From contig CAWCBA010000005.1 of NCBI GenBank assembly GCA_963793675.1, positions 344,645 through 408,644 of the forward strand: 64,000 bases of DNA. The letters run 5' to 3'. This document shows, one piece after another, positions 6,734 to 63,156 of this stretch. This DNA comes from an uncultured Gammaproteobacteria bacterium (lineage in GTDB: Bacteria > Pseudomonadota > Gammaproteobacteria > Steroidobacterales > Steroidobacteraceae). A program made the position numbers and the translations under genes. Below the pieces are notes generated by a model. It ran no database searches and was not told the origin of the DNA. It saw only the letters and a program-made list of their open reading frames with translations. The stretch's first letter is position 1. Each line of letters opens with the position of its first letter.

Positions 6734-6945
6734 CGCGTCCCGTTCGGATCCCGCCGGAGGTTGGATCCAGGCAATCGGTTCTGGAAAAAATGGCCGTGTA
6801 GTTTATCGAATTCGAGGGGCCTGGGCAGTAAACCGGCCCACCCGGCCAAGGTAAGCCATTCCGGGCCAGCTGACGGGTTACAGTCCGGTCGAGTTACCGC
6901 GCAGCAGCCGCCGTTCGCGGCTGCCCTACCCTGCATGGAGCATCG

Positions 6946-8013: not shown

Positions 8014-8127
8014 GACAAAGGGGACCTCCATCAGCTCGACGTCACTCTCCGGGGTGTCTGCGACCCGCGCGGGCCACAGCCTTCCGCGCTAGACTCGGCG
8101 GACAGGCGGCAGGAGGAATCGAGCACG

Positions 8128-10114
8128 ATGTCGGAGGACGAGGGCATGCAGGGTGCAGGAACGCGCCCGACGGCATTCCTCAGTTATTCACACGCGGACC
8201 AGGACCGGGTCCGCCTGCTGGCCGACGCGCTCGAGCAGGCCGGCATCAGCGTCTGGTGGGACACGCTGATCGAGGGCGGGGCGGTCTTCGCGAAGTCCGT
8301 CGAGGTCGCCCTCGCCCGCTGCGACGCCGTGATCGTCGCCTGGTCGAAAGTCTCGGTGTCGTCCGACTGGGTGCTCGACGAGGCCGCGCAGGGACGCGAC
8401 ATGCGCAAACTGGTGCCGGTCTCGCTCGACGGCACGATGCCGCCCCTGGGATTCAGGCAGTACCTCTCGGTCGACCTGCTGGGCTGGCGCGGTGATGCCA
8501 ATGCATCGCAGATCGCGACCATCGTGCGTGGCGTCGAAGCTGTCGCGGGTCGGCTGAATGACGCTGCCGCACATCCGGGCAAGCTGCACGCACCGACCTC
8601 CCCGCCAGCTGCTCGCGCTGACGCGCCGCACGATGCTGCTGGCCACGGGCGGCACGGCGCTGGCCGGAGCGTTGGGAATCTTCGCGTGGCGCCGCGGTCG
8701 CCCCGATGGCGGCGCGACCACAGCGACGGGCAACAGCGTTGCGGTGCTGCCTTTCAAGAACATCAGCGGCGATACCAGCCAGGACTATTTCTCTGATGGA
8801 CTTTCCGAAGAACTGCGCTCGACCCTTGCCCGCAACCTGAAGCTGCAGGTAATGGCCCAGGCATCGTCCGCCATGTTCCGCGACCGCGCCGAGGATGCCG
8901 TGACGATCGCGTCGCGCCTCGGCGTGGCTTATCTGCTCGATGGTACGGTCCGGAAGTCGGGCGAAATCGCGCGCATCACCGCGGACCTGGTCGACGGACA
9001 CACCGGCTTCAGCCGGTGGTCGCAGAGCTTCGACCGTTCGCTGCACGACATCTTCGCCGTGCAGAGCGAAATTGCGCGTACCGTGGCCAGCGCGCTCGCG
9101 GCCGAGATGATACCCGACCCGAAGGTACCCGCAGGCAGCGCAGGCGCGCTCTCCGCCGAAGGCGGGACTCGCAGTGCCGAAGCCTATGACGCCTACCTGC
9201 GCGGCCGCGCACTCTACGACCTGAGCGTCGACGAAGCGTCGGAACGTGCCGCACTCGCACAATTCGACGAGGCCATCGCCACCGACCCAAACTATGCGCC
9301 GGCCCATGCGGCTCGCGCTCGCTCGCTGACGGCCATTGCCAACCAGTACGGCAAGGCCGGACAGTTGAAGGAACTGTACGAGTCCGCCATCGGATCGGCG
9401 CTGCGTGCGATCGACATCGCGCCCGGGCTCGCCGACGCCTACTCGACGCTCGGCTTCACCCTGTTCCAGGGACGACTGGATGCGCGCGGTGCGCGCCAAC
9501 CGTTCGAGCGCTCGAGGGAACTCGGCGCGGGCGAAGCCACCGTGCTGGCACGGTTCGCACAGTACTGTGCGCGCGTCGGCCGCAAGCAGGAAGCCGCGGA
9601 GTCGATCCGGCGCGCGCTGCTGCTCGACAAGTTGAATCCCCTGCTTTTTCGTGCCGCGAGCGCCATCGAGTACGCCGCGCGCAATTACGCCGCATCGATC
9701 CCACCGGCACGCCAGGCACTGAAGATGAACCCGCGCCTGTCGCGCGTGCATGCGGCGATCGGCGATGCGCTGGTCATGCTCGGTCGCGTCGACGAGGCCC
9801 GCAAGGAATACCTCGAGGAAACGGCCACCGATTTCGGGTTGACCGGCCTCGCCGTCGCAGAACACAGACTCGGCCACTCAAAGGCGTCGCACGAGGCCTT
9901 CGCGCGGGTCGAGCAGGAAGGCGACCGCTTGCTGTACCAGCAGGCCCAGGTCTTGTCGCAATGGGGCCAGCTCGACGTGGCGATCGGGCGCCTGCAACAG
10001 GCTCGCGCAATCGGCGACTCGGGACTCGTCTACGCGCGCAACGACCCGTTGCTCGATCCCCTGCGCAACGACCCCCGCTTCACGGAGTTGCTGAGGAGCA
10101 TCGGCTTCGAATAG
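8128..10114 (+). pseudogene. TIR domain / single TM / TolB-N-like / TPR receptor-like protein, split by an apparent +1 frameshift (as sequenced)
   Basis: ORF 8128..8796 (frame 1) carries a TIR_2-like domain (AFLSYSHADQDRVRLLADALEQAGISVWWD...SDWVLDEAAQG) and then degenerates. ORF 8558..10114 (frame 2) becomes protein-like at RQLLALTRRTMLLATGGTALAGALGIFAW (TM). It continues with NSVAVLPFKNISGD..YFSDGLSEEL and TPR repeats ending DPLRNDPRFTELLRSIGFE. One indel near the C4 run at 8600-8603 would fuse them. Confidence 0.75.
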
Positions 10115-12205: not shown

Positions 12206-12969
12206 CACTAATGCGGTCCCTCTCGCGCAATCGCACCCGGCGATTGCGCGCATCGGTCAGCCCCAATTTTTTCACTGCCCGCGCCTGCGGCGCGTCTAAT
12301 GGCTGACTCAGGGACGACGCAAACCGGCGCCTGCCGATTTGCGGCAGGACCAGAGAGGGATGCGCGGGTGGATATTCCAAAGGTCGCAATGACCGAGGGA
12401 ACTATCGACTGCCGGCAGCCCCGCTATCCTCGGAATGTTTCCGAGGACCGGAGGTTTTGCGACCCTGCCTTACGGCAGGTTTGCCTTTGTCAGCGTTCGG
12501 CCGAACGGCCGCGGCCTGCCCATGCGAGCTGGACCGACACCGTCAGGATGCTCTGCGCCGTTCCCCCTTCCCGGAGACGACGCAGGCCTGTACGGAGTGA
12601 GCGGAGTATCGACACGCACACGAAGGGAACAAGAGCGAATTTGTCGCACATCGCAGACATAACTCGTCGTGCGCGATTGTGTCCGGCAAGGAACTTGAAT
12701 CCTTTCAGTGATGTGCGGACGAAATCTCGCGGACACTTCTCCGACTTATGTCATGTACGACTCGCCAGCCGACTACGGATGCGCCGGTCCAGGCGGACAC
12801 ACGGGGTATCTGCACGGAGGAGATCAAGCGGTGATGGTTGCCCACGCTGTGAACATGCGCGCACGCACGGCGCAATCCGGCTCATAGCTCCGTATTCACC
12901 GGAGAAGATCGCTGCCCCCGGCACCCAGGCCGGGAGCATTGAGACGAGCGCTCTGGCGTGGATGGCAGT

Positions 12970-14436: not shown

Positions 14437-14512
14437 TGGTGCCCCGGGCAGGAGTTGAACCTGCGACCTACCGCTTAGGAGGCGGTCGCTCTATCCACTG
14501 AGCTACCGGGGC
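14437..14512 (-). tRNA. tRNA-Arg (anticodon CCT)
   Basis: The reverse complement GCCCCGGTAGCTCAGTGGATAGAGCGACCGCCTCCTAAGCGGTAGGTCGCAGGTTCAACTCCTGCCCGGGGCACCA folds as a 76-nt cloverleaf with anticodon loop CTCCTAA. Confidence 0.95.
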
Positions 14513-14555
14513 ATGCGGTCCGGAGTGTGGCGGCGGAGTAGCCTGACGGGAAAAA

Positions 14556-14631
<76 letters not shown>

Positions 14632-15196: not shown

Positions 15197-15652
15197 GTGC
15201 TCAAGAAGGGATCCCAAGCGCCGGAATTCGACCTCGAGGACCAGGACGGCAAGCGCCATACGCTGAAGTCGCTGCTCGCGAAGGGGCCGTTGATCCTCTA
15301 TTTCTATCCCGCCGACTTCACGCCGGGCTGCACCAAGGAAGCCTGCACCTTCCGCGACCTGCAGAACGATCTGGTGCGGGCCAAGCTGCGCGTGGTCGGG
15401 GTCAGTCCGCAGGATGCCGAGTCGCACAAGAAGTTCGCAGCCAGGCACAACCTCAATTTCCCGCTGCTCGCCGACCCGGACAAGAAAGCGGTCAAGGCCT
15501 ATGACGTGGACGGTCCGCTCGGATTCGGGGTGCGTCGTGGCACGTACCTGATCGGTGCGGACGGCAAGATCCAGGACTCGGTGCTGGCCGACCTGCGGAT
15601 CGGGGCGCACGAGGAATTCGTGCAGGCGGCTCTTGCGGCAGGCGCTGTCTGA
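15197..15652 (+). CDS. peroxiredoxin, Bcp-type (paralogue 1)
   Basis: 151-aa ORF (GTG start) with YFYPADFTPGCTKEAC (peroxidatic and resolving Cys, CxxxxC). Confidence 0.9.
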   Translation: MLKKGSQAPEFDLEDQDGKRHTLKSLLAKGPLILYFYPADFTPGCTKEACTFRDLQNDLVRAKLRVVGVSPQDAESHKKFAARHNLNFPLLADPDKKAVKAYDVDGPLGFGVRRGTYLIGADGKIQDSVLADLRIGAHEEFVQAALAAGAV

Positions 15653-15656
15653 GCAT

Positions 15657-15680
15657 GGGGCTAGGGGTTAGGGGTGGTGG
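15657..15680. repeat. G-run heptad repeat (GGGGCTA GGGGTTA GGGGTGG TGG), partial copy of the element inside dnaE2
   Basis: It lies in the 86-nt AT-richer spacer between convergent genes and shares GGGGCTAGGGG-TAGGGGT with 46726-46745. Confidence 0.6.
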
Positions 15681-15738: not shown

Positions 15739-16332
15739 CTATCTCGACATTGATGCAGGTTTTTCCGGTGGCGTCGGCTGTCCATAGCGCAGCCGCAGCA
15801 CGCGGGTTTCACCCGGGCTCGGTATTACCACGACATAGATGGCATCGAATTCATCGTCGCGCATGGCGTAGTCACTGCCGCTCAGCTGACTGATCACACC
15901 CGGCAGAGTCGTCGCGTAGCCCACTACGGCCACCGTCTTGCCCCGATGCTCCCGCTTGATGCGAGCGGCAAGACCGGACCAGTCGCTGCTCGCGATGACA
16001 TTGATCGGCAACTTGAACTCGTTGGCGATGGGCGCCGCGGTCTGCTGGGCCCGCCGCGTATCGGCGGCATAGAGATAGTCGACCTTGCGGTCGGCCAGCG
16101 CGTCGTCGATCAAGGCACCCAGCGCCGCCACGCGCTTCTCACCGGCCGGACTCAGGTCCGGATCGCCCGAGGTGCTTTCACCTGCTTCGGCATGCCGAAC
16201 CAGCACCACGACGGTCGTCCGGGCCCAGGTGCCGAGCCAATAGACGCCAGCCGCCGCCATCAGGATTCCGAGCAACGGAATCAGCAGCGGCGCCATGAAG
16301 GGGCGACGGCGGAACTTGGTCAGCGGGTCCAT
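15739..16332 (-). CDS. membrane-anchored histidine phosphatase family protein (SixA/PGAM-like)
   Basis: N-terminal TM (PLLIPLLGILMAAAGVYWL) followed by VVLVRHAE (RHG-type motif) and a VVGYATTLP region. Confidence 0.8.
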   Translation of the reverse strand: MDPLTKFRRRPFMAPLLIPLLGILMAAAGVYWLGTWARTTVVVLVRHAEAGESTSGDPDLSPAGEKRVAALGALIDDALADRKVDYLYAADTRRAQQTAAPIANEFKLPINVIASSDWSGLAARIKREHRGKTVAVVGYATTLPGVISQLSGSDYAMRDDEFDAIYVVVIPSPGETRVLRLRYGQPTPPEKPASMSR

Positions 16333-19567: not shown

Positions 19568-19659
19568 TGGCGGAGAGGGTGGGATTCGAACCCACGTACA
19601 CCCGTTAAGATGTAACTGGAATTCCAGTCCAGCGCCTTCGACCGCTCGGCCACCTCTCC
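19568..19659 (-). tRNA. tRNA-Ser (anticodon GGA)
   Basis: The reverse complement is GGAGAGGTGGCCGAGCGGTCGAAGGCGCTGGACTGGAATTCCAG...GGGTTCGAATCCCACCCTCTCCGCCA. It has a long variable arm and anticodon loop CTGGAAT. Confidence 0.95.
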
Positions 19660-43741: not shown

Positions 43742-43996
43742 ATGCACGAGAAGCCGGAATCAGCGGACGAGTTCGAGGACGAAGACGCCGAGGAAGCCGT
43801 CGGGGGCGATGAAGCCCTCGATGTCGATCGCCTCATCCAGGACCTCGATAAGCGCAAGCGCGGCGCGCCCAAAGGCGCGGAACCCGCCTGGCGCAAACTC
43901 GAACGCATGATGGAACAGAAGCGCACGTCGGAGTTGCTGAGCGACTTCGACGATTACGACGTGGGCGACCGCCCGCGGTCGCGCAAGGGTCAGTGA
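43742..43996 (+). CDS. small acidic hypothetical protein
   Basis: 84 aa with an Asp/Glu-rich N-terminus, then [37 protein letters not shown]. Composition is not GC-artefact-like. Confidence 0.55.
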
Positions 43997-46900
43997 AAGT
44001 CGCGCGACGCCGAGCGTAACCGGCCGAGCCAGCGGCTCAGGTCGACCAGCCGATGCGCGATCACGTGCATCACCTCCCCTTCCGTCTGCAGCTTGCCGGC
44101 CACGCCCATCAGGCGTGAACCGATCAACGCCTGGCGTTGCCGCTCGGCCACGGCGCGCCAGACGATCAGGTTGATCGAGCCATGCTCGTCTTCGAGCGTC
44201 ACGAACGTGACGCCCTCGGCGCTGCCCGGTCGCTGCCGCGTGATGACGAGGCCCGCGGTGCGCACGTTCGAGCCGTTCGTCAACGAGCGCAGCTGCGCAG
44301 AATCGAGGAAACCGCGGGCACCGAGTTGATCGCGCAGCACCGCGACCGGGTGACGCCGCAAGGTAAGCCCCGTGTGCGCGTAGTCGGCCACGATGTCCTC
44401 GCCTTCGCGTGGCGCACGCAACAGCGGAATACCTTCGGCGATGCGCACCTCGGGCAGGATGGGCAGCGAGCCCTCGAGTCCGGCAACCTGCCAGGCCGCG
44501 CGGTAACGATGCCCGCCGAGACCCGCCAGTGCGCCCGCCGCCGCGAGACAGCCCATCGAACGACGATCGAGGCCGGCCTGTTCCGCCAGTTGCTGTGCGC
44601 TCTCGAACGCGTGGGCCTGCGCGCGCGCGCGGGCATCGACCAGTCGCTGTGCCGCCTCCTGCGCCAGCCCCCTCACCAGCCGCAGGCCGAGCCGCAACGC
44701 GGGAGCGGGCGAATCGTCGGCGCGGTGCTCCAGGGTGCAGTCCCAGTCGCTCGTGCGCACGTCGATCGGGCGCACCTCGACGCCGTGACGCTGTGCGTCC
44801 TGCACGATCTGCGAGGGCGCATAAAAACCCATGGGCTGGCTGTTGATGAGTGCGGCCGCGAAAGCCGCGGGCTCGTGCCGCTTCAGCCACGCCGAGACGT
44901 ACACGAGCAGGGCGAAGCTGGCCGCGTGCGATTCGGGGAAACCGTATTCGCCAAAACCGAGGATCTGCTGGAAGATGCGTCGCGCGAACTCCTCGGAGTA
45001 ACCGCGATCGCGCATGCCGTGGATCAGCCGCTCCTCGAAGTGGCCCAGCCCACCCTTGCGCTTCCATGCCGCCATCGCGCGCCGCAACTGGTCCGCCTCG
45101 CCCGGCGTGAATCCCGCCGCGACGATCGCAAGCTGCATCACCTGCTCCTGGAAGATCGGCACGCCGAGCGTGCGTCTCAGCACCCCTTCCACCTCTGCGC
45201 TGGGATACGTGACCGCCTCCTCGCCCGCGCGCCGGCGCAGGTACGGATGCACCATGTCGCCCTGGATCGGGCCGGGCCGGATGATCGCGACTTCGATGAC
45301 GAGGTCGTAATACGAACGCGGCCGCAGTCGCGGCAGCATCGCCATCTGCGCGCGCGACTCGATCTGGAACACGCCCACGGTGTCGGCGTGCCCGATCATG
45401 TCGTAGACCGCCGGGTCTTCCGCCGGCACCGTCGCGAGTGTCCAGCGCTGGCCGCGACAGCCGTGCACGAGGTCGAATGCGCGGCGGATAGCGGCCAGCA
45501 TGCCGAGCCCGAGCACGTCGACCTTGAGCAGGCCGAGCGCGTCGAGGTCGTCCTTGTCCCACTGGATCACGGTGCGACCGGGCATCGAGGCATTCTCGAC
45601 CGGAACGAGTTCTTCGAGCAGGTCGCGCGCGATGACGAACCCACCGACGTGCTGCGAGAGGTGGCGCGGAAAACCGAGCAGCGTGCGTGCGAGCGACAGT
45701 ATCCTTCGACAGCACAGGACTGTCGGGATCCATGCCCGCTTCACGAACCCGTGTCGCGTCGATGCTTCGACCCATCCCACCACTGCATCGAACGTGCCAG
45801 CGCCGCCACCTGCAGCGGATCGAGCCCCATCGCCTTCGCCACGTCGCGCAGCGCGCTGCGCGGACGATAGCTGATGACCGTCGCCGTCAGCGCAGCCCGC
45901 TCGCGGCCGTACTTCGCGTAGATGTACTGGATGACTTCTTCGCGGCGCTCGTGCTCGAAGTCGACGTCGATGTCGGGTGGTTCGTTGCGTTCCCTGGAGA
46001 TGAAGCGTTCGAACAGCAGCGACATGCGCGCCGGATCGACTTCGGTGATGCCGAGACAGAAACACACCGCCGAGTTGGCTGCCGAGCCGCGGCCCTGGCA
46101 GAGAATGCGCCGCGAGCGCGCAAACCGCACGATATCGTGCACGGTGAGGAAGTACGGCTCGTACCCGAGTTCGGCGATCAGCGTGAGCTCGTGCTCGATC
46201 GCCTGACGCGCCGGGGCAGGCGCGCCGCCCGGCCAGCGGTGACTGGCGCCCTCCTCCGTGAGGCGTCGCAACCACGCGGCCGGCGTGTACCCCTCCGGCA
46301 CGATCTCGCGCGGGTATTCGTAACGCAGCTCGTCGAGCGTGAACGTGCAGCGCGAGGCGATCTCCACCGCAGCGGCGAGCAGCTCGGGCGGGTGCAGCTG
46401 CGCGATGCGCTGGATCGGGCGCAGGTGGCGTTCGCCATTGGAAAACAGTGCGAATCCCGCCTGTTCGACGGTAGTACCGATCCGCGTCGCGGCGAGGACG
46501 TCCTGCAACGCCCGACGCCCGCGCGCGTGCATGTGCACGTCCCCGGTCGCGACGAGTGGCAGTTCGAGTTCGCGACCGAGGTCCTGCAACTGCTCGAGTC
46601 GCCTGCGATCGCGACCCGTCGTCAGCAGTTCGACCGCGATCCAGAGCTGGCCGGGGAAGAGCGTGGCGAGCCAGCGGGCTTCGTCAGCGTCCGGTTGCGT
46701 TGCGGGCAGCCACAGGCACAGGAGAGGGGCTAGGGGATAGGGGTTAGGGGTTAGTGAAGAAGCTGGCGTTGCCAGCGATTTCCGACTATCCCCCGACTCC
46801 CATCCCCTATCCCCTGCGACGATTTCATTGAAATCGTCGCGGCACAGCAGGTATTCCCCTTTCGCGGCGGAGCGCCGGCCGCGGGTGATCAACCGGCAAA

Positions 46901-47159
46901 GACCACCGTACCCTGCGCGGTTCCGCGCGAGCAGCACGCAGCGCAGTCCGTCCTCGAGGCGAAACTCCGAACCGACGATGAGCTTGAGACCGTGCTCGCG
47001 TGCAGCGACGTGCGCGCGCACGACACCGGACACCGAGCACTCGTCGGTGATCGCGAGCGCGGCATACCCAAGCCTCGCAGCGCGTTCGACCAGTTCTTCC
47101 GGGCGCGAAGCGCCGCGCAGGAAACTGAAGTTGGAGAGGCAATGCAGCTCGGCGTACAC
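43990..47159 (-). pseudogene. dnaE2: error-prone DNA polymerase DnaE2 (ImuC); two frameshifts at about 45708-45714 and 45765-45775 plus a ~39-codon in-frame insertion
   Basis: The PHP N-terminus is [18 protein letters not shown]. The sequence ..[11 protein letters not shown] / [20 protein letters not shown] / [26 protein letters not shown] is read in three successive frames. The remainder is collinear with DnaE2. Confidence 0.9.
46724..46840. repeat. composite palindromic G-run element inside dnaE2
   Basis: GGGGCTA GGGGATA GGGGTTA GGGGTTA occupies 46726-46753. A 6-bp hairpin gctggc-gtt-gccagc sits at 46762-46776. The C-rich inverse arm ctatcccccgactcccatcccctatcccc is at 46787-46814. A perfect 11-bp hairpin gcgacgatttc-att-gaaatcgtcgc is at 46816-46840. 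Confidence 0.75.
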
Positions 47160-47215: not shown

Positions 47216-48871
47216 TCACGCGAACCAGCCATGCAGGAACCAGCGCGCGCCCTCGACCGTCTCGCGGCGCGTGCGGAACACCCACAACCGGGCGCCCTGC
47301 GCATTGCGCGCGATGTAGTAATCACGCGCGATGTCGTGACCGTCCCACCAGCCGGATTCGATGCACTCGGGGCCTTCTTCGAGAACGAGCCGGTCGACGT
47401 CGCATGGCTCCGGCCGGTCGAGCAGCCAGAGAGGCCGACCTTCGCCCGGCCTTGCGACCGACCTCTCCCATCGCAATGGAAGAGGCACGGAGGGCGAACT
47501 CGCGTTCGGTGAAGCACTGCGCGACGACGCTTTCTGCCGCGCCCTGGGCTTCGTCGCTGCCGGCTCGACGGCGCGCCACGCCGCCTCTGGTCGATGCTCG
47601 GACACGCAGGCGAGTCCGTACACGGCATCGTTGCCGAGCCGCGCGCGCAGCCGCTCGACGAGCTGCGGCAGGTTCTTGCCGGATCCGCGCCGGTCATGCG
47701 CAAACAGCTCGATCGCGCCGGCCTGCAGGTCGATGAGCGGGCCGCTCAGCAGGCGCACGTTGCGCACGGGCTGTGGCAGCACGAGCGGCGCAAGACGCCC
47801 GCGCAGCAACTCCGCCATGTGCCGCGGCTGCGCACCGACCGGTTGCACGAAACGCAGTCGCACGCGCGTGACCGGTGCATCACGATGACGCAGCTGCACT
47901 TCGATCGCCTGCACGCCACGATCGCGCTCGCGCAGGAACTGACACAGCTCTTCGAACAGGGGGGCGAGCGCCTGGCCGAGCCGCGCGGTATCGGCAATTT
48001 CGGGTTCGAGGTCGCGCCGCGTGGCAAAGCGTTCGCGCGCGGCATACGCTGCACGCGGCTCCTGCACACGGCCCGTGGCGCGGTCGAGCGTGGCAAGCAG
48101 CTCCTGGCCGAAGCGGCGCGCGAAGCCAGCGCGCGGCAGGCGCAGGCAGTCACCCACGGTGCGCACGCCCATGGTGCCGAGCGTTTCGATGCCGCGTTCG
48201 GGCCAGCGGGTGCACCCGAGCGGCAGCAGCGCAAGCCGCGCAGCCAGCTCGTCGCGGTTGCGCACGAACACGGGGCGCGCGCCGGGCGGACACGCACGCG
48301 CGAACCACAGCGATGCCAGCGGCGACGGCGTGATCGCAAAGCGAACCGTTGCGCCCATGGCGTCGGTTAGTTCCTGCTGCAAGCGCACGCACAGTTGCCT
48401 GGCGCCGCCAAACAACCGCAGGCTGCCACGCACTTCGAGCAGCACGCCGTCGGGCTGCTCGATGCTGACCCTCGGCGTGAACCGCACTCCGCGCTGTGCC
48501 ACCGCTTCGAGCAACTGGCGTTCGCGCCGCGCATCACGTGCCAGCGCATGCAGGCCCGGTACGAGTGCGAGCGCCGCGTTGATCGACATTCCCTCGCGCA
48601 CACCTGCGGCGTGCACGGCTTCCTCGCAGGCACGCACGACCTTGCCGTTGCGCCCGAGGTCGACGATGGCGACAGGCGGACGACCCGGCAGGGCAAGCGC
48701 CACATCACGCAACGAATCGAGCATCAATGACGGCAGGTGGATGGCGAGCCAGAGTTCACGCGAGCGCGATTGTGCGAGCGGTGTGCGGCCCGGAACGGAA
48801 AGCGAGGACGGACGGAATGCCGGCGTGACCCGCACATGGTGGGGAGACGGGGGCCTGGCGAGCGGGGCCAT
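47216..48871 (-). CDS. imuB: Y-family polymerase-like protein ImuB
   Basis: 551-aa ORF with an N-terminal Y-family palm region (LWLAIHLPSLMLD..). It sits between imuA and dnaE2. Confidence 0.85.
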   Translation of the reverse strand: MAPLARPPSPHHVRVTPAFRPSSLSVPGRTPLAQSRSRELWLAIHLPSLMLDSLRDVALALPGRPPVAIVDLGRNGKVVRACEEAVHAAGVREGMSINAALALVPGLHALARDARRERQLLEAVAQRGVRFTPRVSIEQPDGVLLEVRGSLRLFGGARQLCVRLQQELTDAMGATVRFAITPSPLASLWFARACPPGARPVFVRNRDELAARLALLPLGCTRWPERGIETLGTMGVRTVGDCLRLPRAGFARRFGQELLATLDRATGRVQEPRAAYAARERFATRRDLEPEIADTARLGQALAPLFEELCQFLRERDRGVQAIEVQLRHRDAPVTRVRLRFVQPVGAQPRHMAELLRGRLAPLVLPQPVRNVRLLSGPLIDLQAGAIELFAHDRRGSGKNLPQLVERLRARLGNDAVYGLACVSEHRPEAAWRAVEPAATKPRARQKASSRSASPNASSPSVPLPLRWERSVARPGEGRPLWLLDRPEPCDVDRLVLEEGPECIESGWWDGHDIARDYYIARNAQGARLWVFRTRRETVEGARWFLHGWFA

Positions 48872-48872
48872 C

Positions 48873-49547
48873 TCAGTACCCCAGGTTCACCGTGGCAGGA
48901 CGGCCTCCGCGGCTTTTGACGATGCGCACCTGCAGGCCTTCGGTGCCGCCCCCGAGCAGCGCAAGCCGCAACACCGCTGGCGAAGGCGTGAGCCCCGCCT
49001 GCAGCGGGCGATACAGCACTGCAAGGCTGCGCGACGCCTCTGCCGCCAGCTGCAACCGTCGCAAGGCGTGCGGATCACGGGGATTGGCCCAACCGAGCAC
49101 GGCACTGCAAGACTCCGAGCGCAGCGCCTGGTCCATCACCCACTCGGTGGCGCCCGCGCCGTTGACGACGAGCATGCGCCCGACATCGATGCCCCACGCT
49201 GCGAGCGATGGCGCATATGGACGATACGGCGGCGAGACCCAGGCGATCCAGCCCGCGCTGTCCCGGTCATGCGGTGACGGATAAACCTCGTCGGCCGCGC
49301 CTTCGTCCCTGCAAAGCACAGCGAGCGCGGGTAGCAGCAACCGGAGTTCACCGATGCCCCGCTGATCGGAAAGGATTTCGATGAGACCCTGCCGGGGCCA
49401 GCCCGCGCCCGGAAGGCAACGGTCGAGCGCGGCGTAGCCCGTGGGCAGTCCCGCCGGCACGGCCGCGGTCGCGCTACTGCCCGTTTCCCTTGCACGCCAG
49501 AGACGCGCGGAATTCTGTTGCAGCAGTTGTTCGACGGAAATGCTCAT
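48873..49547 (-). CDS. imuA: translesion-synthesis protein ImuA (SulA/RecA-like)
   Basis: 224-aa ORF with LPTGYAALDRCLPGAGWPRQGLIEILS..GIGELRLLLPAL. It is the first gene after lexA. Confidence 0.85.
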   Translation of the reverse strand: MSISVEQLLQQNSARLWRARETGSSATAAVPAGLPTGYAALDRCLPGAGWPRQGLIEILSDQRGIGELRLLLPALAVLCRDEGAADEVYPSPHDRDSAGWIAWVSPPYRPYAPSLAAWGIDVGRMLVVNGAGATEWVMDQALRSESCSAVLGWANPRDPHALRRLQLAAEASRSLAVLYRPLQAGLTPSPAVLRLALLGGGTEGLQVRIVKSRGGRPATVNLGY

Positions 49548-49608: not shown

Positions 49609-50229
49609 TCAGGACAACCGCTGCGTGTCCTGCCGCACCACGCCGACGACGAGGCCTTCGATGGTTAGCGACTGCTCGCGCAGGTCGATACGCAGGGGTT
49701 CGAAGTCTTCGTTCTCGGGCAACAGCCAGGCGATCGAACCGTCCTGCCGGTAACGCTTCACGGTAACTTCGTTCTCGAGGCGCGCGACGACGATCTGGCG
49801 GTTGCGGACTTCGGGCGTGCGGTGGACCGCAACGAGATCGCCGTCGAGGATGCCGACGTTGCGCATGCTCATGCCTTTGACCTTGAGCAGGTAATGCGGC
49901 CGCGGCTGGAAGAGCGCCGGGTCGATCTGGTAGCGCGCTTCGATGTTCTCTTCGGCCAGGATGGGCCGGCCGGCGGCGACCCGGCCGATCAACGGCAGGC
50001 CGATCTGGTCACGCAGGGAATCCTTGAGCTGAATGCCGCGGGAGGCCCCGGGACGCAACTCGATGACGCCTTTGCGCTGCAGGGCACGCAGATGTTCTTC
50101 GGCCGCGTTCGCGGACTTGAAGCCCAGGGCTTCGGCGATTTCGGCCCGCGTGGGGGGCAGGCCCTGCTCGGCCAGGCTGTCCTGGATGAATACGAGCACC
50201 TGGCGTTGGCGCGGCGTTAGGTCTTCCAT
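49609..50229 (-). CDS. lexA: SOS repressor LexA
   Basis: N-terminal wHTH ([14 protein letters not shown]), cleavage site VAAG, and S24 Ser/Lys (KGMSM ... VTVKR). Confidence 0.95.
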
Positions 50230-60280: not shown

Positions 60281-63156
60281 ATGAAAAGAATGCTGGTCAA
60301 CGCAACTCAGGAAGAAGAGTTGCGCGTAGCGCTGGTGGACGGCCAGCGGATCTACGACCTCGACATCGAAATCCCGTCGCGCGAAACCAAGAAAGCCAAC
60401 GTCTACAAGGGTCGCATCACCCGCGTCGAACCGAGCCTCGAGGCCGCGTTCATCGACTACGGCGCCGAGCGCCACGGCTTCCTGCCGCTGAAGGAAGTCT
60501 CCAAGGCGTTCTTCAAGGACAAGCAACCCGGTCAGGAAGGCGGCAGCCGCGGCATCCGCGACCTGATCGAGGAAGGCCAGGAAATCATCGTCCAGGTCGA
60601 GAAGGAGGAACGCGGCAACAAAGGCGCCGCGCTCACCACCTTCATCAGCCTGGCGGGCCGTTTCCTGGTCCTGATGCCGAACAACCCCCGCGCCGGCGGC
60701 GTATCACGCCGCGTCGAGGGTGAGGACCGCGACGCCCTGCGCGAAGCCATGGACTCGCTGCAGATCCCGGACGGCATGGGCGCCATCGTGCGCACCGCCG
60801 GCGTGGGTCGCAGCCCGGAAGAACTGCAGTGGGACCTGAACAACCTGGTCGACATCTGGAACGCGATCCAGCAGGCGTCCGACAGCCGGCCCTCGCCGTT
60901 CCTGATCTACCGCGAGAGCACGGCGATCCTGCGGGCGCTCCGTGACTACCTCAGCGATGACATCGGCGAAATCCTGATCGACAAGCAGGACGTCTACGAG
61001 GAAGCGCGCGAGTACATGCAGCGCTTCATGCCGAACAACCTGCGCAAGCTCAAGATCTACGACGACCATGTGCCGCTGTTCACGCGGTACCAGATCGAGA
61101 GCCAGATCGAGTCGGCATATTCGCACAAGGTGACGCTGCCCTCGGGCGGCAGCATCGTGATCGATCACACTGAAGCACTGGTCTCGATCGACATCAACTC
61201 GGCACGCAGCACCCGTGGCACCGACATCGAGACGACCGCCTGCAACACCAACCTCGAGGCCGCGGACGAAATCGCGCGCCAGATGCGCTTGCGTGACGTC
61301 GGCGGCCTGATCGTCATCGACTTCATCGACATGGAGTCGACCAAGAACCAGCGCGCTGTCGAGGATCGCCTGCGCGACGCGGTCAAGCAGGATCGAGCCC
61401 GCATCCAGCTCGGCAAGATTTCCCGCTTCGGCCTGCTCGAGCTCTCGCGGCAGCGCCTGCGTCCGTCGATCAGCGAATCGACCAACATCGTCTGCCCGCG
61501 CTGCACCGGCATGGGCGTGATCCGCAGCGTCGAATCGCTGGCGCTCGCGGTGCTGCGACTGATCGGCGAAGAGGCCCGCAAGGACCGCACCGCCAAGGTC
61601 ATCGCGCAGTTGCCGGTCGACGTCGCGACCTACCTCATGAACGAGAAGCGCGACTGGCTGCACGACATCGAAGCGCGCAGCCACGTCGACATCGTGCTGG
61701 TGCCGAACAAGTACCTCGAGACGCCGTCCTACGAATTGCGCCGAGTGCGCGATGACGAGACCGACCTGCCCGAGAACTCGGTCATCAGCCATCACATGGC
61801 TGTCGAGCCGAAGATCGACCTCGATGCGATCGCCTCGGCCGAGGAAGAAAAGGCCCCGACGCCACAGCAGCCCGCGGTGACGACTATCATCCCGAGCACC
61901 CCTGCCCCGCCCGCGGCCCCCGAGGTCGTGGCCGCGCCGGTCGCGCTCGCCGCGGCTCCGGTGGCCGTGGCCGCACCGGTCTACGGACCGCGCGACAACG
62001 TGCTGGTGCGGATGTGGCGCTGGTTCGCAGGCGACAAGCGTGCGCCCGAACCGCAGCCGGCTCCGTCCGCGAACATCGGCCGCGGCGGCAAGGAAGGCGA
62101 GCGTGACCGTCCGCGTCACGATCGTGATCGCAGCGAACGCGGCCGTGGCCGTGATGGTCGTCGCGACGGGCGCGACAACCGTGACGGGCGCGGACGCAGC
62201 GAGGGCCGCGGCGAGCGTGGCTCGCGTGACGAAGCGCGTCGCGAAAACCGTGCGAAGGTGCATCGGGCCAGCCGGCCCGCGGCAACGAACCGCGACGTGA
62301 CGAGCCGGCTCGTGCGCAGCCACAACAGCCGCGTCGTGACGAAGCCCGCGTGGCGGACGTCGTGACGGTGGCCAGGGCGGCGAAGGCGGCCCACGCGAGG
62401 TCCAGCCGCGTCGTGAAGGCGGCCAGCAAGGCCAGCGCCAGCCACAGCAACCGCGTCCGCCGCGTGAACCGCGTCCGCCGCGCGAACCGCGGCCGCCGCG
62501 CGAATACCGCGAGCCGCAGGAACCGCGTGAGCAGGTTGCCGCGCCAACCGCAGTCGTCGCGGCCGTTGCGAACGACATGAGCACTGCCGACGCAGCAGTC
62601 GCACCGCCGATGGGCGACGGCCAGCAGCAGCGTCCCGAAGGAGATCGCAGCGAGCGCACCGGACGCAGGTCGCGTCGCGGTGGCCGTCGCCGCCGCGGCC
62701 GCAGTGATGGCGGTGGCGAAGGTTATGGCGCCGGCCGCTGCGGCGCAGGCGCTGCCGGCGAAGGCAACTTCGACGATGGCCGGGTGCGGTAGGGTGGAGA
62801 CGATGCGGGTGGCAACGACAGAAGCGGCTCGCGCGCCGGCTCAGCAGTCGTTCGATGCTGCAGCGCCCCGCCAGACGTTCGACGCACCGCGCGAGGTCGC
62901 GCCTGCGCGCGAGCCTGACGCGCCCGGCGAGTCGCAAGCACCCGCACGAAGCTTCGATGCGCCCTGGCCGCCGGAGCCGCGTTCGTTCGACTTCGACCGT
63001 CCCGCAGCGCCACCTCCTCCGCCGGCCCCGCCCGGCGAACAGGCACCTGCGCCCGTCGTGGTGCATGAGCCGACCCCCGTCGCGACGGCCTCCGAGCCAC
63101 GCGAGTGGACGCCCACTCCACCAACGGACGTGACGACGCCGCGCAACGAGCCGTAG
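60281..63156 (+). CDS. rne: ribonuclease E; catalytic half intact (ORF ends 62365), Arg/Pro-rich C-terminal scaffold continues through about 3 frame changes
   Basis: [30 protein letters not shown], an S1 domain and the Zn-link CPRCTGMG. Downstream RNase E-like low-complexity sequence appears in frame 1 ([26 protein letters not shown]), then frame 0 ([36 protein letters not shown]), then frame 1 (..[30 protein letters not shown], stop 63156). A strong terminator follows immediately. Confidence 0.85.
62451..62504 (+). repeat. tandem 18-nt coding repeat x3 (PRPPRE)3 in the rne C-terminal region
   Basis: ccgcgtccgccgcgtgaa / ccgcgtccgccgcgcgaa / ccgcggccgccgcgcgaa. Confidence 0.8.

Follow-up and report, generated by a model that had tools for sequence, protein, structure and literature searches.

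A quadruplex-prone heptad repeat carried in frame within the error-prone polymerase gene dnaE2 of an uncultured gammaproteobacterium

The 64-kb window analyzed here (positions 344,645 to 408,644 of contig CAWCBA010000005.1, from an uncultured gammaproteobacterium of the Steroidobacteraceae) contains an SOS mutagenesis cassette in which lexA, imuA and imuB lie upstream of the error-prone DNA polymerase gene dnaE2. Gene order is identical in the relatives, where Pfam LexA, IMS and PHP/DNA_pol3_alpha domains are found. Within the PHP-domain segment of dnaE2 lies a hairpin-forming repeat of 91 nt, composed of tandem G-rich heptads and an imperfect complementary arm, which is read in frame and is the subject of this report. 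The cassette and the parts of the element are as follows, in window coordinates:

49609-50229, minus strand: lexA (open reading frame, ORF)
48873-49547, minus strand: imuA (ORF)
47216-48871, minus strand: imuB (ORF with an IMS domain)
43990-47159, minus strand: dnaE2, error-prone DNA polymerase, with the element in its PHP domain
46726-46753, plus strand: four tandem GGGGNTA heptads (GGGGCTA GGGGATA GGGGTTA GGGGTTA)
46754-46786: centre of the element, with the inner boundary motifs and a 6-bp hairpin
46754-46761, plus strand: inner boundary motif GTGAAGAA, with its partner GTCGGAA on the minus strand
46762-46776, plus strand: 6-bp hairpin GCTGGC-GTT-GCCAGC, followed by GATTTCCGAC and then by the C-rich stretch that ends at 46815
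46786-46814, plus strand: imperfect complementary arm, C-rich on this strand, CTATCCCCCGACTCCCATCCCCTATCCCC
46816-46840: perfect 11-bp palindrome with a 3-nt loop, GCGACGATTTC-ATT-GAAATCGTCGC, 100% complementary

The heptads, the 6-bp hairpin, the C-rich arm and the 11-bp palindrome that had been described in the initial annotation are all borne out by the sequence and by repeat searches, and the block is open in the dnaE2 frame, with the minus-strand ORF 45741-47159 running through the whole of it without a stop. The heptads form a canonical G4-N3-G4-N3-G4-N3-G4 quadruplex motif (25-mer GGGGCTAGGGGATAGGGGTTAGGGG) on the template, non-coding strand of dnaE2, so that in mRNA sense the array is read as the C-rich arm CTAACCCCTAACCCCTATCCCCTAGCCCC, while the complementary arm is read as the G-rich GGGGATA GGGGATG GGAGTCG GGGGATAG. 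In the sequences of the relatives, GAAATCGC can be seen directly on both sides of this mRNA-sense G-rich arm. Tandem Repeats Finder assigns the array a period of 7 and 4.9 copies, and an inverted-repeat search pairs 31-nt arms at 46725-46755 and 46785-46815 with 81% complementarity. The array is the sole match in the 64 kb to four G4 tracts with spacers of 1-7 nt, and the quadruplex prediction proposed earlier as a check places the G4Hunter maximum of the window (2.52) at this position, with a weaker quadruplex motif on the opposite strand at 46790-46814. The three-heptad pattern GGGGNTAGGGGNTAGGGG has five matches in the window versus none in 100 shuffles. Folding of the 136-nt segment as mRNA-sense RNA predicts two adjacent hairpins at -72.6 kcal/mol (z = -7.5), and the plus strand folded as DNA reaches -38.6 kcal/mol (z = -7.1). 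A scan of the whole window against Rfam at gathering thresholds assigned no family to the element, and at a permissive E-value positions 46600-46950 matched nothing but microRNA precursor models, below threshold and as generic hairpins. In a distant search of a plasmid collection with the 136-nt segment, only two 35-nt matches at chance level were obtained.

In order to place the element among DnaE2 orthologues, the N-terminal 472 residues were used as query and the best 40 DnaE2 proteins were aligned; those matches that bear a source name come mostly from uncultured Gammaproteobacteria or from metagenome-assembled genomes (MAGs) of the Steroidobacteraceae. As the initial annotation had supposed, the insert is extra with respect to most orthologues, since about 30 of the best 40 have only a short 'R.DL..GL.DCL.LWLP' stretch at this place. 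Extra residues at exactly the insert site are confined in this alignment to the closest relatives, with differing lengths and sequences, and the DNA of these relatives carries heptad arms or their remnants there:

L001 (91% nucleotide identity): the element of the window plus 21 nt, that is, three heptads
L002 (81% nucleotide identity): C-rich arm CTAACCCCTAGCCCCCAGCCCCTAGCCCCT kept, other arm unrecognisable
L040: both arms present, with GCGGATA/GCGGGTA units
L041: a pair of GGGGGCA units, with what is left of the other arm beside the same TTCTTCAC
L042: 13 extra residues only
L043: no extra residues

A metagenome scan with a conserved 22-nt anchor located just downstream of the element yielded seven more contigs, five of which carry the C-rich arm alone, preceded by CTCCGAC. 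The clade bearing the element spans DnaE2 proteins of 73-99% identity, and modified inserts are common to lineages in which this protein is only 73-84% identical, so that the insert is old, and the part of the initial annotation that regarded it as possibly recent does not hold. In a neighbour-joining tree of DnaE2 proteins computed with the insert masked, the insert-bearing lineages and two insert-free ones form a single clade (99/100 bootstraps), with the insert-free proteins P0003 and P0006 nested within the short-insert P0005 and P0021 (100/100 bootstraps). The simplest reading of this pattern is one ancient gain, which would have been followed by decay and loss.

The other half of that earlier proposal, that the element is tolerated in frame, is supported by the stop-free ORF, by the intact 1055-aa gene of contigs L170 and L173, and by the manner in which the insert has changed. 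In nine contigs the D-F codons and the downstream anchor are separated by 43, 97, 100 or 121 nt, values that are all equal to 1 modulo 3, and the gains and losses of the insert (21 additional nucleotides, loss of one arm and the centre, near-complete loss) are multiples of three bases. Because a heptad array shifts the frame by one base per unit, a perfect sense-strand GGGGNTA array places TAG in all three frames, and CCCCTAA/CCCCTAG units likewise place stops in all three frames on the other strand. Wherever the TAN triplet of a unit coincides with the dnaE2 frame in the window, L001 or L002, it takes a non-stop form (TGG, TAT or CAG), whereas units out of frame, save for one, read TAG or TAA. 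What makes the second arm imperfect, its in-frame unit reading TGG, is hence exactly the set of changes that remove stops. By comparison, 8 of the 11 complete copies of the family at other loci are closed in all six frames, and the seemingly open copy of L057 is actually intergenic, 6 nt past the stop codon of dcd. The reading frame has been maintained throughout, and these patterns suggest that selection on DnaE2 has kept the insert translatable.

At the protein level, the insert site aligns to approximately residues 118-130 of the PHP domain of E. coli Pol III alpha. The first 286 DnaE2 residues were modelled in AlphaFold with 35 homologues (mean predicted local distance difference test score, pLDDT, 80.5; predicted template modelling score 0.80), and in this model the insert is a coil at residues ~115-145, where pLDDT falls below 50 over 120-133, flanked by helix 107-114 (RDDFNEIV) and strand 146-150 (LLCLW). 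The insert is thus modelled as a floppy, low-confidence loop on the surface of the PHP domain, a location that would allow widely differing peptides, or none, to be tolerated, and the encoded peptide is predicted to be a disordered loop with no evident role. An intein or another mobile element acting at the protein level was considered and rejected, given the size of 27-34 residues and a conservation that resides at the level of the DNA repeat.

The 11-bp palindrome had been taken as part of the insert, but its sequence assigns it to the host gene. On the coding strand it reads CGC GAC GAT TTC AAT GAA ATC GTC GCA (R D D F N E I V A); its left arm consists of the native R-D-D-F codons and the whole encodes helix 107-114, which is also found in uninserted orthologues, so that the palindrome is flanking gene sequence lying outside the heptad repeat. 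It carries one mismatch in L164, L170 and L173 (contigs 98-99.4% identical to the window), is perfect in L001 with three compensating changes (GAC...GTC to CGT...ACG), is reduced to 6-8 bp in other relatives and is absent from L002. Over eight sequences, 84% of the cells are paired and three pairs have changed on both sides; only 5-7 of 500 shuffles pair as well, and slid controls pair much less. Drawn from eight related sequences only, this covariation is suggestive and not conclusive. Template switching within quasi-palindromes is a known mutational route, and the pattern may reflect either selection for the hairpin or repeated switching of this kind.

In the window itself, a break that the initial annotation had overlooked divides dnaE2 into the ORFs 45741-47159 and 43990-46275; it is caused by two extra bases, one near 45767 and one near 45702, about 65 nt apart. 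Both bases are extra relative to all relatives and lie about 1 kb from the element. An exact-sequence look-up of the window LexA retrieved 19 contigs; two of them, L170 and L173, match the window at 98.6 and 99.4% identity over 3.4 kb and have dnaE2, element included, as one unbroken ORF of 1055 codons. The frameshift segment is polymorphic, with L173 reading TCGAAG-ATC ... GTC-AAGGATA and L170 and L164 reading TCGC-GCATC ... GTCGAAGG-TG; the window has TCGAAGCATC ... GTCGAAGGATA, with the L173-type and L170/L164-type indel states united at both places. Since each extra base combines the indel states of two co-occurring haplotypes, the frameshifts are most likely a consensus artefact from mixed strains, a real strain-specific pseudogene being a possible alternative. 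As the main account of dnaE2 the pseudogene was set aside in view of this hybrid state, of the intact gene in contigs 98.6-99.4% identical and of the integrity of other long genes in the window (PutA, 1106 aa; a SufB/D-family ORF, 522 aa; a PIN/PhoH-domain ORF, 492 aa). Two further observations concern these contigs. Around the element L164 and L170 hardly differ from the window, but downstream (window positions 45650-45800) they switch to an L002-like stretch that sets them apart from L173 and the window, which indicates either a chimeric assembly or a mosaic produced by recombination within the population. L001 (European Nucleotide Archive ERZ25039462, contig_44692) has several single-base indels, with dnaE2 in three calls and PutA in two; it resembles an error-prone long-read assembly, and its frameshifts are therefore not to be taken as biology.

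The suggestion that the element is a structure-prone repeat occurring elsewhere is supported by a second array in the window and by many copies in related genomes. The former lies outside the cassette:

15657-15675, plus strand: second, solo heptad array GGGGCTAGGGGTTAGGGGT, 5 nt past the stop of ORF 15197-15652 and between convergent ORFs

This array occupies an 86-nt spacer richer in A+T, in which CACTATC, near 15750, is a possible decayed partner. Beyond the window, a pattern of three and a half GGGGNTA units matched 37 viral contigs, and a three-unit pattern matched at least 119 stretches in species-representative genomes, a scan that reports taxonomic breadth and not copy numbers; the phyla matched in these stretches include Cyanobacteria, Planctomycetota, Acidobacteriota, Gemmatimonadota, Gammaproteobacteria and others. 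Many GGGGNTA arrays have a complementary array within about 100 nt. In particular, several uncultured gammaproteobacterial MAGs hold copies of the form (GGGGNTA)3-7-GTCGGA(A/G)-centre-(T/C)TCCGAC-(TANCCCC)3-7, and the copies of uncultured soil Gammaproteobacteria have in common the inner boundary TAGTCGGAA...TTCCGACTA around unrelated centres. The same boundary, TAGTCGGA(A/G) and TCCGACTA, delimits the copies found in other MAGs of Gammaproteobacteria; in the window copy, GGGGGATAGTCGGAA stands on the coding strand and GGGGTTAGTGAAGAA on the opposite one, and the inner motif TAGTGAAGA recurs at a second copy located between lexA and imuA in L042 and L043. Convergent inverted arrangement is seen in 11 full copies at related loci. 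The centres measure 29-102 nt, and an all-against-all comparison of 12 of them relates only those of the window and L001, which are orthologous, and those of L057 and L150, which belong to one MAG. Loci of related MAGs have up to three or four arrays per 8 kb, these loci having been chosen because they contain a match. Within the window, the inner motif GGGNTAGTCGGA with two mismatches has 19 matches versus 14.6 expected and is uninformative save at the element. A literature search with the exact heptad strings returned only papers on telomeres and on quadruplex biophysics.

The second copy of L042 (591-700) and L043 (~593-690) is a heptad hairpin with GGGGATA/GGGGATG/GGGGACA units and inner motif TAGTGAAGAGG; the called imuA start falls inside its centre, and the copy is absent from the window, L001, L040 and L041. 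Its C-rich arm is stop-free in the imuA frame (units TAT, CAT and TGT) and may hence be translated as an N-terminal extension. In L057 (~6740-6790) and L040 (3340-3450), GCGGATA/GCGATAG units stand beside GGGGATA or replace it, and the heptads of one locus or genome appear to change their consensus together.

It seems probable, on these grounds, that the element represents an old, tolerated in-frame insertion originating from a widespread class of quadruplex-prone intergenic repeats and kept readable by selection. Members of this class consist of short G-rich heptad arrays of about four units, often as two convergent arrays forming a long hairpin around an arbitrary centre, and normally lie just outside genes. 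One copy would have entered the loop between helix and beta-strand in the PHP domain of DnaE2, in the common ancestor of an uncultured gammaproteobacterial clade whose nearest named relatives are Steroidobacteraceae MAGs, and the position of the loop on the protein surface would have made the insertion tolerable. Selection on DnaE2 would since then have retained non-stop variants in frame and changes of length in threes. The length of the arrays would have varied by replication slippage, and the symmetry of the arms, like that of the neighbouring palindrome, may have been renewed by template switching within the hairpin. The anatomy of the element, its resemblance to the family, its age, the maintained frame and its position in a loop are established by the data above; the entry of a pre-existing repeat, the slippage and the template switching are inferred.

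Several observations sit uneasily with this scenario. The flank tree allows the single-arm state of five relatives to be the result of one deletion or of two, or to have preceded the full hairpin of the window lineage; the three sequences that have the full hairpin (window, L164 and L001) cluster in that tree, whose internal branches are short. The heptads of L040 are GCGGATA and not GGGGNTA, which requires that both arms changed together or that a separate event took place. A pair of empty and filled sites with clean boundaries or a target duplication was not found among the relatives, and the original insertion is accordingly inferred rather than seen; when sites with and without the repeat were compared, both in dnaE2 and in the lexA-imuA interval, no clear target-site duplication was seen at the arm ends, although in an old insertion such a duplication could have decayed. 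The copy count in the source genome is that of 64 kb, which hold one further array (15657). Finally, the 24-nt C-rich arm diverges by 0-17% between lineages, versus 24-58% at four-fold sites of the flanks and 10-24% over the flanks overall (a comparison from which L001, with an indel in its flank, was excluded). The changes in the arm all fall in the 3-nt spacers, and the four C4/G4 tracts are intact in nine lineages. The arm is thus more conserved than four-fold sites of its flanks, which is not predicted for a purely neutral passenger and could stem from selection for the quadruplex, from constraint on the peptide, from the strong third-position preference of the genome for G+C or from homogenisation with other copies.

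An origin of the heptads in place, by slippage of a short G-rich motif within a variable loop and template-switch mirroring of the resulting array, would dispense with the insertion of a pre-existing repeat. The single arm of five relatives, the difference of exactly three heptads between L001 and the window, the mutually unrelated centres of the family copies, which could be local sequence, and the presence of GAAATCGC on both sides of the G-rich arm, compatible with local copying, all agree with such an origin. It is nonetheless unlikely, because TAGTCGGA(A/G)/TCCGACTA and TAGTGAAGA are common to intergenic copies in other genomes and to L042/L043, the heptad consensus recurs at 15657, and the extra segment appears abruptly in one clade as opposed to the short loop of some 30 other orthologues. 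The conservation of the C-rich arm is the main reason for retaining a second, somewhat less credible alternative, in which the element would be a selected cis-regulatory device whose template-strand quadruplex, mRNA hairpins or both throttle the transcription or translation of the error-prone polymerase. The intact G4 tracts and low arm divergence, the very stable folding and the adjacent hairpin, which retains its pairing through double changes, are in keeping with this proposal; however, five relatives lack the partner arm and the centre and the insert is nearly gone in P0003 and P0006, so that the hairpin is dispensable, the conservation of 24 nt has the other possible sources listed above, and the covariation comes from only eight related sequences. 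Moreover, the authors of a study on similar repeats in Xanthomonas report that they could identify no gene-regulatory role for them (PMC4692102). The least credible alternative, and a highly improbable one, is a recent MITE (miniature inverted-repeat transposable element) or REP (repetitive extragenic palindrome) insertion that inactivated dnaE2. The inverted terminal arms, the small size and the division of the window gene into two frames would fit it, but the element is present down to 81% nucleotide identity, with an altered form at 73-77% protein identity, strains 98.6-99.4% identical carry it in an intact 1055-aa gene, the extra bases lie about 1 kb away and are a hybrid of the L173-type and L170-type haplotypes, and neither a target duplication nor a centre common to the copies was seen.

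Returning to the favoured scenario of an old and tolerated insertion, the element offers a natural experiment in which a structure-prone, stop-laden repeat lives within a reading frame of essential length, its most instructive aspects being the avoidance of stops and the threefold periodicity of its changes in length. It also extends a little-studied class of quadruplex-forming heptads beyond Xanthomonas and cyanobacteria, even though on its own it reveals no new mechanism. The presence of a conserved, predicted template-strand quadruplex motif within an SOS polymerase gene makes it a candidate for an effect on expression, and we conjecture that this quadruplex and the mRNA hairpin might dampen that of dnaE2. 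A more far-reaching proposal, to which we give little credence, is that the template-strand array could be under DNA-level constraint as a built-in brake on, or sensor for, SOS mutasome expression, and that inverted GGGGNTA arrays with the TAGTCGGAA/TTCCGACTA boundary might constitute an undescribed site-forming or mobile element of soil Gammaproteobacteria and not mere products of slippage.

Other features of the window can be recorded briefly. A c-di-GMP-I-GGC riboswitch aptamer lies on the minus strand at 12410-12494 (Rfam 65.3 bits, gathering score 59), and three tRNA genes are found at 14440-14631 and 19571-19659 (minus strand), two of them adjacent and one about 5 kb off. An ORF with a TIR_2 domain followed by an overlapping TPR-repeat ORF (8014-10114, plus strand) may be a single signalling or defence-type pair. 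The top-scoring tandem array of the window is an 18-nt repeat, AACCGCGTCCGCCGCGCG, at 62449-62532, with ~3-4.7 copies.

The element can finally be compared with described repeat systems. The initial annotation had proposed a REP/MITE-like element or a structure-prone repeat, and only the latter description is supported, the element being no classical MITE. The element resembles MITEs, REPs and REP doublets (REPINs) in its shortness, inverted arms, hairpin, multiple copies and intergenic preference near gene ends, and its 91-nt unit with imperfect 31-nt arms provides the terminal inverted repeats and small size of a MITE. It differs from them in that no internal sequence is conserved among the 12 centres compared, in the lack of a GTAG-type REP head, and in arms that are tandem arrays of changing length; its copies share only the heptad arms and the short inner motif, with unrelated centres. 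No target duplication is visible, though in an old insertion one could have decayed, and no partner transposase was identified, the host sequence covered being the 64 kb of the window. A second parallel is provided by the Rickettsia palindromic elements (RPE), described as units of ~150 bp with family-specific sequence and peptide in many genes per genome (Ogata et al. 2000, as presented in PMC10969869). In common with RPE, as there described, a palindromic repeat lies in frame in a housekeeping-type gene, adds a peptide compatible with the fold and has been retained over evolution. Unlike RPE, it is made of heptad arrays and provides a single certain in-frame case, together with the possible imuA N-terminal overlap in L042/L043; the relatives have very different peptides at the site and the other copies have stops in all frames, which does not suit membership in that group.

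The closest counterpart is found among heptameric repeats of Xanthomonas and Nostoc, the latter of which we take to be the cyanobacterial heptanucleotide STRR repeats. Rehm et al. (2015; PMC4692102) describe G-rich units, GGGAATC in Xanthomonas and GGGGA(C/T)T in Nostoc, with a preference for four units; each Xanthomonas genome has 183-186 arrays, and there are 70-75 convergent inverted pairs per genome. Of these arrays, 89-93% are intergenic, with a mean distance of 28 nt to the upstream ORF, and 7-11% are intragenic; the repeats were shown to form quadruplexes and i-motifs in vitro, and their function is given as unknown. The family that the initial annotation had been unable to recognise thus has a described counterpart. 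The dnaE2 element has a tandem 7-nt unit with a run of at least three G, four tracts with 3-nt loops and a convergent inverted pair, and, like the repeats of that study, the GGGGNTA family shows a 7-nt G-tract unit, about four units per array and convergent pairs able to form a stem-loop. Further points of agreement are the potential of one strand for a quadruplex and of the other for an i-motif, and variation in array length between close relatives. A dispersed location, mostly within tens of bases of ORF ends and with an intragenic minority, may be another likeness, as the copies at 15657 and in L057 suggest. Differences lie in the unit, GGGGNTA, in a copy that is intragenic, in frame and persistent across a clade, in a quadruplex that is predicted from sequence here and was measured in vitro there, and in the TAGTCGGAA/TTCCGACTA inner boundary of the gammaproteobacterial copies, for which no counterpart was found in the parts of PMC4692102 consulted. 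Judged by its sequence, the element is a further example of the G-rich, quadruplex-prone heptameric repeats, a known kind that here occupies an unusual position.

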